NCBI RefSeq assembly: GCF_053078305.1
Contig: NZ_CP166879.1
DNA length: 64,000 nt
Reading direction: 5' to 3' (one strand)
Below are positions 53,699 through 54,124 of the stretch, in pieces. A program made the translations under genes and the position numbers. The notes beneath the pieces were generated by a model. It did no database searches and was not told where the DNA came from. It was given only the letters and a program-made list of their open reading frames with translations. How positions within the stretch are numbered: position 1 is the first letter of the stretch; each line of letters opens with the position of its first letter.

Positions 53699-53802
53699 CC
53701 GTTATCTCCTGATACACCTTAGATCTATAAGGCTACGCTAGCGTATCAAAACTGACAATTCATTCTATGAATGAAATCGAAACTGTTAGCAAATATACCA
53801 TT

Positions 53803-53902
53803 GCCTGATGCGCTCCGCTTATCAGTCCTACAAAAACATCAATATATTGAATTTACGCAACATTTGTAGACCAGATAAGGCATTCACGCCGCATCCGGCA
53901 GG
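53803..53902. repeat. Pair of REP elements (BIME-like) in the yeeZ-hisL spacer
   Basis: GCCTGATGCGCTCCGCTTATCAG at 53803-53831 and the reverse-orientation REP consensus at 53868-53902. Confidence 0.6.
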
Positions 53903-54056
53903 AACAAAGCCCACTTTAGTTACAGAACACAATGTTCTTGAGGGTTTTAAAGACATATTTTCACGATTTCTTTTCTAACGTAGTCACTCCAGGCCCCCTC
54001 CTTTCCCCGCTCATTCATTAAACAAATCCATTGCCATAAAATATATAAAAAAGCCC

Positions 54057-54086
54057 TTGCTTTCTAACGTGAAAGTGGTTTAGGTT
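54057..54086 (+). promoter_or_regulatory. his operon promoter candidate
   Basis: TTGCTT, 18-nt spacer, TAGGTT, about 40 nt upstream of hisL. Confidence 0.5.
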
Positions 54087-54124
54087 AAAAGACATCAGTT
54101 GAATAAACATTCACAGAGACTTTT

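Follow-up and report, generated by a model that had tools for sequence, protein, structure and literature searches.

The spacer between yeeZ and hisL in the Escherichia coli DNA studied here very probably is the ancestral Escherichia form of this locus. It carries a pair of REP elements (a BIME) and never received the yefM-yoeB cassette found at the same site in K-12, which would have entered other E. coli by one later replacement event. The difference at yeeZ-hisL is a common two-allele polymorphism in E. coli. A REP-form spacer without yefM-yoeB is already known and ordinary; our analysis adds which form came first, where exactly the breakpoints lie, how frequent each allele is, and that the K-12 cassette has plasmid-like affinity.

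Background

YoeB is a ribosome-dependent mRNA interferase, and yefM-yoeB is a type II toxin-antitoxin (TA) module. TA cassettes have been described as horizontally transferred minimal modules (PMC5120126), and no type II TA system is common to the E. coli strains MG1655, W, EDL933, and UTI89 (Fraikin et al. 2020, PMC7167474). For the uneven distribution and the horizontal transfer of TA modules, PMC7167474 cites Fiedoruk 2015 and Ramisetty & Santhosh 2016.

Iguchi et al. (2011, PLoS One 6:e23250, PMC3158064) reported that the O157:H7 strain Sakai does not contain yoeB and yefM between yeeZ and hisL. According to the same study, REP sequences are located in this region of Sakai and take part in insertions and deletions between strains. 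The locus of Sakai is thus the one studied here and is in the same state, with yoeB and yefM missing and REPs in place. However, our sequence is not from O157:H7, and PMC3158064 gives no direction of change.

In the present study, we compared the yeeZ-hisL spacer of one E. coli sequence with K-12, with other E. coli genomes, and with other Enterobacteriaceae. We refer to the whole stretch of DNA, 64 kb in length, as the window. The form of the locus that is found in the window is called the REP allele, and the K-12 form is called the TA allele.

The spacer and its flanking genes

The window sequence is E. coli. An earlier note on this DNA, made from the sequence without database searches, had claimed a spacer of 426 bp between yeeZ and the his leader. 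The start of yeeZ at 53698 on the minus strand and the ATG of hisL at 54125 confirm this length (Table 1). In the case of hisG, an upstream in-frame TTG is also listed besides the ATG at 54321.

Table 1. Features of the yeeZ-hisL region in the window
Feature	Position	Strand	Details and basis
yeeZ, SDR-family oxidoreductase/putative epimerase, 274 aa	52874-53698	-	ORF; named yeeZ in colinear genomes
yeeZ-hisL divergent intergenic spacer, REP allele form	53699-54124		426 bp
yeeZ-proximal part of the spacer	53699-53775		identical to K-12; aligns with other Enterobacteriaceae
Candidate yeeZ promoter	53730-53758	-	TTGTCA 53758-53753, 17 nt, TAGCCT 53735-53730; predicted
Escherichia-specific insert, ~258 bp	53777-54034		missing from the 160-178 bp spacers of other genera
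Segment swapped for a ~650 bp cassette in K-12-type strains, ~205 bp	53779-53986		alignment and base-by-base comparison
REP element, z-type, closest to the z2 consensus, ends CTAC	53803-53831	+	1 mismatch to GCCTGATGCGCTNCGCTTATCAGGCCTAC
Inter-REP linker, 34 nt, L-type, candidate IHF site	53832-53865		core ATCAATATATTG at 53838-53849
REP element, y-type, GTAG at 53866-53869 on the plus strand	53866-53899	-	3 mismatches to GCCGGATGCGGCGTGAACGCCTTATCCGGCCTAC
BIME unit tail past the y REP, GGAACAAAGCCCACTTTAGTTACAG	53900-53925		aligns with the corresponding tail of the copies at narP-ccmH and fdhE-yiiF
Right-hand 48 bp of the Escherichia-specific insert, kept in the K-12 allele	53987-54034		K-12, CFT073, TUM1857, CUPS05
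his promoter region	54057-54086	+	TTGCTT 54057-54062, 18 nt, TAGGTT 54081-54086; identical to K-12
hisL leader peptide, MTRVQFKHHHHHHHPD	54125-54175	+	translation; named hisL in colinear genomes
His operon leader/attenuator RNA, Rfam RF00514	54151-54274	+	covariance-model match; identical to K-12
hisG, first his operon structural gene	54321-55220	+	ORF; named hisG in colinear genomes

The 77 bp nearest to yeeZ are the same in all alleles and can be aligned with the short spacers found in Salmonella, Citrobacter, Enterobacter, and Pseudenterobacter. They hold two blocks, ACTGACAATTCAT and TAAGGCTACGC (plus strand), which are the most conserved parts of the left flank across genera in the spacer alignment. 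The blocks would correspond to the -35 and -10 elements of a putative yeeZ promoter, with a predicted transcript start at about 53723. A consensus promoter scan did not list this candidate, because its -10 matches the consensus at only three of six positions. The same scan also did not pick up the his promoter hexamers, whose assignment we take to be that of the his promoter literature.

At the other end of the spacer, the his control region is intact, as the earlier note had stated for the promoter and the attenuator. Both lie in sequence identical to that of K-12, and the promoter block AAAAAAGCnCTTGC...AAGTGGTTTAGGTTAAAAG is nearly invariant across genera. hisL encodes seven His residues in a row. 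The Rfam model RF00514 (His_leader) matched over its full length (1-126) with 131.6 bits against a gathering score of 49 (E = 2e-23), and the region is accordingly classified as a His operon leader attenuator.

Replacement of the middle segment in K-12

In K-12 (MG1655), the gene order is yeeZ-yoeB-yefM-hisL. The TA pair therefore lies at this very position and not elsewhere in K-12, which agrees with the earlier note. Alignment with the K-12 yeeZ-hisL interval, which had been proposed as a check, gave identical flanks and a swapped middle segment. In the base-by-base comparison, the window was the same as K-12 over 53534-53775 and 53993-54316, and the breakpoints were placed at 53775-53778 (left) and 53981-53992 (right). 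The K-12 counterpart of the swapped segment is about 650 bp long (positions 1709-2358 of the K-12 locus, L001) and consists of yoeB, yefM, and about 145 bp upstream of yefM (PyefM). No similarity between the two alternative segments was detected by blastn at a word size of 7. The difference between K-12 and the window is a replacement, not a simple deletion. A partial alignment of the two segments that MAFFT produced was regarded as forced and not as homology. The yeeZ genes of the window and K-12 differ at eight positions (99.0% identity).

When K-12 YefM and YoeB were used as tblastn queries (word size 2), the best matches were at chance level both in the 64 kb window (E = 0.87 and 1.7) and in the spacer searched alone (E = 0.56 and 1.7). 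The claim that yefM-yoeB is missing from the spacer was thus borne out: there is no remnant and no homologous coding sequence. Candidate remnants of yefM or yoeB in the spacer or in the rest of the window were rejected as chance-level matches (tblastn, word size 2; blastn, word size 7). Compared with the chromosomal yefM-yoeB of K-12, the window has the same chromosomal site with identical flanks but neither its ORFs nor any similarity to it, and the window contains no member of the YefM-YoeB type II TA family. Outside the 64 kb studied, the strain may have a divergent pair of the YefM/YoeB family.

Coding potential of the spacer

The spacer had been described as having no ORF. This holds for genes, and it needs correction for ORFs in the mechanical sense, which reach 56 aa (the others are 42 and 32 aa). 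None of the three ORFs has a Pfam match, the 56-aa frame does not stay open in three other Escherichia species, and no gene is annotated in the spacer in the RefSeq genomes with the REP allele that we looked at. We rejected the three ORFs as genes on the basis of the Pfam result and the broken 56-aa frame.

No Rfam family reached the threshold in 53699-54124. At E values up to 1, there was only a weak match to naRNA4 over the y REP (53869-53905, 19.9 bits, E = 0.62). The naRNA4 family presumably derives from a REP element, and we took the match as REP similarity and rejected it as a small RNA. Three matches of the promoter/terminator scan were also dropped as evidence; they lie inside or overlap 53779-53986, two of them in the BIME linker, and the other genera do not have that part of the spacer.

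It is highly improbable that the spacer encodes a small unannotated gene or small RNA, such as the 42-aa ORF on the minus strand at 53828-53956. This frame is open in four of five Escherichia REP alleles. However, it passes through repeated sequence (the y REP and the linker), and it has neither its start nor its stop in E. albertii; the Pfam, annotation, and Rfam results given above also argue against a gene.

The REP pair

The spacer contains two REP elements in opposite orientation, as the earlier note had claimed. For scoring, we used a 29-nt z2-type consensus (GCCTGATGCGCTNCGCTTATCAGGCCTAC) and a 34-nt y-type consensus (GCCGGATGCGGCGTGAACGCCTTATCCGGCCTAC) of the E. coli REPs. Each REP was the sole match to its consensus in the 64 kb window, and no match occurred in 100 shuffles for either consensus. 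The left REP is closed by CTAC at 53828-53831, and the two REPs are arranged tail to tail (CTAC...GTAG) with the 34-nt linker between them. Taken individually, the REP hairpins are modest signals (left, -4.3 kcal/mol, z = -2.3; right, -4.9 kcal/mol, z = -1.5), and the whole pair folds as a long hairpin (-15.1 kcal/mol, z = -3.0). The linker core ATCAATATATTG fits 12 of the 13 positions of WATCAANNNNTTR, which we take to be the IHF consensus. The core is thus a candidate site, and the BIME may bind IHF, as judged from sequence only.

Elements of the same build were found at narP-ccmH and fdhE-yiiF in other E. coli. In each of them, a z-type REP is followed by a linker of about 34 nt, then by a y-type REP and a common tail of about 25 nt, and the linker core TCAATnTATTGAATTT is common to them and the window element. 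These paralogous BIMEs sit between convergent genes (narP/ccmH and fdhE/yiiF), whereas the BIME of the window sits between divergent 5' ends.

BIME-1, also called RIB or RIP, is one inverted REP pair with a conserved long (L) linker, which is frequently an IHF site (PMC3333891; PMC2817692). BIME-1 combines z1 with y, BIME-2 combines z2 with y, and a chimera is called atypical (PMC3333891). The window element resembles BIME-1 in having a single inverted, tail-to-tail REP pair and a 34-nt linker with the core ATCAAtataTTG. The consensus and GTAG/CTAC matches, the imperfect-palindrome hairpins, and the conserved L linker all agree with membership in BIME-1/RIP. One feature may differ and another does. 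The left REP comes closest to the z2 consensus used here, whereas BIME-1 has z1; this assignment is tentative, and the element may be an atypical BIME if the left REP is z2 with an L linker. The location differs, as the element lies between the 5' ends of the divergently transcribed yeeZ and hisL and not at the 3' end of a transcription unit, which the title of a reference in PMC3333891 gives as the usual place of REPs and BIMEs. In the K-12 RefSeq record, we found no annotated REP or RIP features.

Which form is older

The outgroup set was collected with an exact hisL pattern, which gave 54 loci with one genome per species; E. fergusonii was not in the sample. At more than 40 of the enterobacterial loci, yeeZ and hisL lie side by side in divergent orientation; these loci come from Salmonella, Citrobacter, Enterobacter, Kluyvera, Leclercia, Kosakonia, and others. 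Their spacers are usually 160-178 bp and occasionally 322-450 bp long, and none of these loci contains a YefM/YoeB pair. Alignment of the long and short spacers showed that Escherichia has gained about 258 bp (53777-54034) relative to the other genera.

Spacers of 424-426 bp, colinear with that of the window over the whole length including the BIME, were found in E. albertii, Escherichia sp. E1V33, Escherichia sp. MOD1-EC7003, and E. coli E69. Between E. albertii and the window, the replaced segment is 88% identical, compared with 92% for yeeZ and 94% for hisG. This pattern fits vertical descent of non-coding DNA, not a recent import.

The TA allele keeps the right-hand 48 bp of the Escherichia-specific insert (53987-54034) and therefore derives from the REP allele. 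Judged by these alignments, the REP-bearing spacer came first in Escherichia, and the K-12 cassette arrived later. The earlier note had called yefM-yoeB absent from the spacer. The cassette is indeed missing, but the loss implied by this wording does not stand, since the outgroups show that the cassette was gained in K-12-type strains. As the outgroups carry the REP form and the TA allele keeps the 48 bp, "absent" here means never acquired in this allele, not deleted.

The opposite course, in which the lineage of the window deleted yefM-yoeB and a BIME was then inserted into the scar, is exceedingly improbable. TA loci do decay and vanish in E. coli, the example being ccdO157 as cited in PMC7167474, and a few genomes have a truncated copy, e.g., LR883000, in which yefM alone was matched. 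However, E. albertii and two other Escherichia species have a colinear REP allele at species-level divergence, and the window contains no remnant of the cassette. Furthermore, the TA allele has 48 bp that are known only from the insert of the REP allele, and the outgroup sequence would need to have been restored base for base by a deletion and a later insertion.

We propose the following order of events for the ancestral REP allele and its later replacement. The ancestral yeeZ-hisL spacer would have been short. In Escherichia, the spacer would then have come to contain the BIME inside the insert of about 258 bp, which is the state of the window. A plasmid-type cassette of about 650 bp (PyefM, yefM, and yoeB) would have replaced about 205 bp, including the BIME, in part of E. 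coli. Both alleles would have been kept since then and swapped between lineages by homologous recombination.

Distribution of the two alleles in E. coli

The REP allele (at least 80% coverage in one piece) was found in 1,193 of 5,426 complete E. coli genomes (22%), and the TA allele was found in 4,206 (78%). K-12-type yefM-yoeB DNA at any location was present in 4,217 of the genomes (78%), always on the chromosome and with a median of one copy. Therefore, about 1,209 genomes have no close copy anywhere, not merely at this locus. The TA copy in LR883000 is truncated. The carriers of the REP allele include O157:H7 strains and E. coli B; those of the TA allele include K-12, HB101, CFT073, NRG 857C, O111:NM, and O145 RM9872. 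One sequence labeled E. coli (CUWW06) has a short spacer. It is 93-99% identical to Kluyvera over the region and was not counted as a third allele.

K-12 is placed in the same phylogroup as B, and O157:H7 is closely related to O145:H28. If these groupings hold, the alleles are not tied to phylogroup, as B differs from K-12 and O157:H7 differs from O145. This patchy distribution fits with the position of the locus, which adjoins the recombination-prone his/O-antigen region. The best match to the 1-kb region of the window was strain E-1246 (99.8%), and O157:H7 genomes cover the same region completely (100%) with 98.5% identity. For the 25-kb region of the window, no match of at least 99% over its length was found in the 5,426 genomes, which suggests that this region is a mosaic.

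These observations bear on whether the ancestors of the window once carried the TA allele and went back to the REP allele through homologous recombination across the his/O-antigen region. We consider such a reversion possible but rather unlikely. It would explain why the alleles cut across strain groups and why identity with K-12 extends up to both breakpoints, yet eight differing sites occur further into yeeZ; the suggested mosaic in the 25-kb region is also in its favor. However, these data also agree with a REP allele that was inherited without interruption, and there is no direct sign of a recombination tract. In addition, a reversion would concern only the history of the lineage and not what the sequence is.

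The distribution also bears on a function of the BIME. The element might have a local role between the divergent promoters and have been selected since before the split of E. coli and E. albertii. Such a role could be that of an IHF-bent or gyrase-bound topological insulator, or of an upstream architectural element of the his promoter. The BIME is kept in four Escherichia species, its linker core is conserved with other BIMEs, the whole element folds as a long hairpin, and its place between two 5' ends is unusual. The binding of IHF, gyrase, and Pol I and an insulator role have been published for REP/BIME (PMC3333891; PMC2817692). We nevertheless think a selected local role improbable. The 78% of E. 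coli genomes without the element have an unchanged his promoter sequence, the other genera do not have the element, and in E. albertii the conservation of the BIME does not exceed that of the sequence around it (86/97 versus 185/210 positions). We infer that the BIME is a passive relic of the spread of REPs by a REP-associated transposase.

Origin of the cassette and its junctions

Both junctions of the cassette are common to the four TA alleles examined (K-12, CFT073, TUM1857, and CUPS05), which indicates a single insertion event. The cassette (L001 positions 1711-2278) is 83-86% identical to yefM-yoeB modules of large plasmids from Salmonella, Citrobacter, and E. marmotae. The plasmid-like module extends from 2-3 nt past the stop codon of yoeB to about 64 nt upstream of yefM. 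For the 87 nt between this module and the right junction, no donor was found; this stretch was present only here, in genomes with the TA allele. A single plasmid-like gain is in line with the accepted picture of chromosomal type II TA modules, which are regarded as accessory and horizontally acquired.

Mine et al. reportedly described in 2009 the module ccdO157 at folA-apaH, a TA cassette that some E. coli chromosomes contain and others do not. It resembles the present case in being a small TA module that is variably present at one fixed intergenic position flanked by core genes. It differs in its locus and in its TA family; moreover, the empty site in the window holds a BIME, which the cassette replaced and did not adjoin.

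An inverted repeat spans the right junction of the TA allele, as though the insertion had produced it. It is a perfect repeat of 10 bp in K-12 and has a core of 6-7 bp in all of the TA alleles examined. On the left, the junction falls at the edge of the older Escherichia-specific insert, beside the ATTCATTCTATGAAT palindrome. Because an inverted repeat spans the right junction and the left junction was reused, the BIME might have served as the capture site for the plasmid-derived yefM-yoeB by recombination dependent on hairpins or single-stranded DNA, which we regard as a quite improbable route. Examples of such a route are the activity of a REP-associated Y1 transposase and template switching at palindromes. 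If the BIME were a capture site, the ATTCATTCTATGAAT palindrome would mark a hot spot that was used for insertion more than once, and minimal TA cassettes would generally have REP/BIME sites as their landing pads.

Consequences for annotation and expression

The significance of the polymorphism is small beyond bookkeeping. For annotation, the strain should be treated as one without chromosomal yefM-yoeB, and results on YoeB of K-12 are not transferable to it; these concern Lon-dependent activation, heat-induced mRNA cleavage, and a possible co-transcription of yeeZ with the TA operon. The strain probably has no YoeB activity altogether, given the 64 kb of its genome that was seen and the genome-wide absence of the cassette from other genomes with the same allele. 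In K-12, read-through from yefM-yoeB into yeeZ has been suggested (PMC5120126). In the window, without such read-through, yeeZ is probably transcribed only from its own putative proximal promoter. E. coli B and K-12 are a clean natural pair of alleles for the effects of the cassette and the BIME on the expression of his or yeeZ.

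Insertion junctions of the yeeZ-hisL spacer

The palindrome ATTCATTCTATGAAT lies directly to the left of two insertion junctions in the spacer, namely that of the old Escherichia-specific insert of 258 bp and that of the yefM-yoeB (TA) cassette of K-12. Both insertions thus seem to have made use of the same few bases next to this palindrome. At the other end of the cassette, the right junction in K-12 is spanned by a perfect 10-bp inverted repeat, GCTAAGAGGAcagTCCTCTTAGC. Its left arm consists of cassette-side DNA and its right arm of the pre-existing spacer, and the predicted fold has an energy of -9.5 kcal/mol (z = -4.95). 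Only a core of 6-7 bp of this repeat is retained in CFT073 and in the remaining TA alleles that were compared. The positions of these and the other features are listed in the following table.

Features of the spacer, the cassette and the wider region (L001, K-12 locus; L063, L064 and L065, further loci with the TA allele)
Feature	Coordinates	Strand	Remarks
Palindrome	window 53757-53776		left of both insertion junctions
10-bp inverted repeat	L001 2344-2366 (K-12)		equivalent window site just left of 53987
~87-nt variable stretch	L001 2270-2356		equivalents in L063, L064 and L065
42-aa ORF	window 53828-53956	minus	crosses the y REP and the linker
2,691-aa ORF	window 20995-29070	plus	very long ORF

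Variable stretch and small ORF

Across genomes with the TA allele, unusual variation was observed in the ~87 nt that separate the plasmid-like TA module from the right junction. This stretch shows 80-90% identity to K-12 in 1,479 genomes; for the adjoining yefM-yoeB coding DNA, the sampled rows give identities of 97.6% or more, and in every genome the identity is 95% or more. No second location of the stretch was found in E. coli.

Among five Escherichia copies of the REP allele, the spacer form with two inverted REPs, four keep the 42-aa frame open, and both its start and its stop are gone in E. albertii. The frame had no family match, and it is probably not a gene.

Distribution and possible decay of the alleles

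The 426-bp REP allele is also present in E. coli B-LamR (NZ_CP115179.1, 2010527-2011828); therefore, B and K-12, the two classic lineages of laboratory E. coli, have different alleles at yeeZ-hisL. In NZ_LR883000.1, the yefM part of the cassette alone (query 224-503) was matched, in two places (hit H110, ~1892016-1892295). This suggests that yoeB is interrupted or partly deleted in this genome and that the TA pair has decayed locally in some strains.

Within the collection, seven records matched at only 80-90% identity. The record labelled 'Escherichia coli strain CUWW06' (NZ_CP182139.1), which has a short yeeZ-like/hisL spacer of 178 bp and is without yeeY, showed 93-99% identity to either Kluyvera genomosp. 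3 or Kluyvera georgiana over its plaP, yeeZ-like, hisL, hisG, hisD and hisC region. It is probably a mislabelled Kluyvera genome.

Wider region

Among complete E. coli genomes, no full-length match of at least 99% identity was found for the 25 kb of window 39001-64000, the best being 98.2%. Parts of this region are identical to K-12, and the 1-kb yeeZ-hisL piece is 99.8% identical to strain E-1246. The region thus looks like a recombination mosaic.

Around cobU-tmaR (43214-43601), strain G4/9 is colinear with the window, in the order nac, tRNA-Asn, ldtA, cobT, cobS, cobU, tmaR, yeeA, sbmC, dacD, sbcB, tsuB, tsuA, plaP, yoeI, yeeY and yeeZ. The gap between cobU and tmaR/yeeX is only ~390 bp in the window; at this position, K-12 presumably carries the CP4-44 prophage (flu, cbtA/cbeA). 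Judging from its position, the 2,691-aa ORF probably encodes the yeeJ-type inverse autotransporter adhesin.
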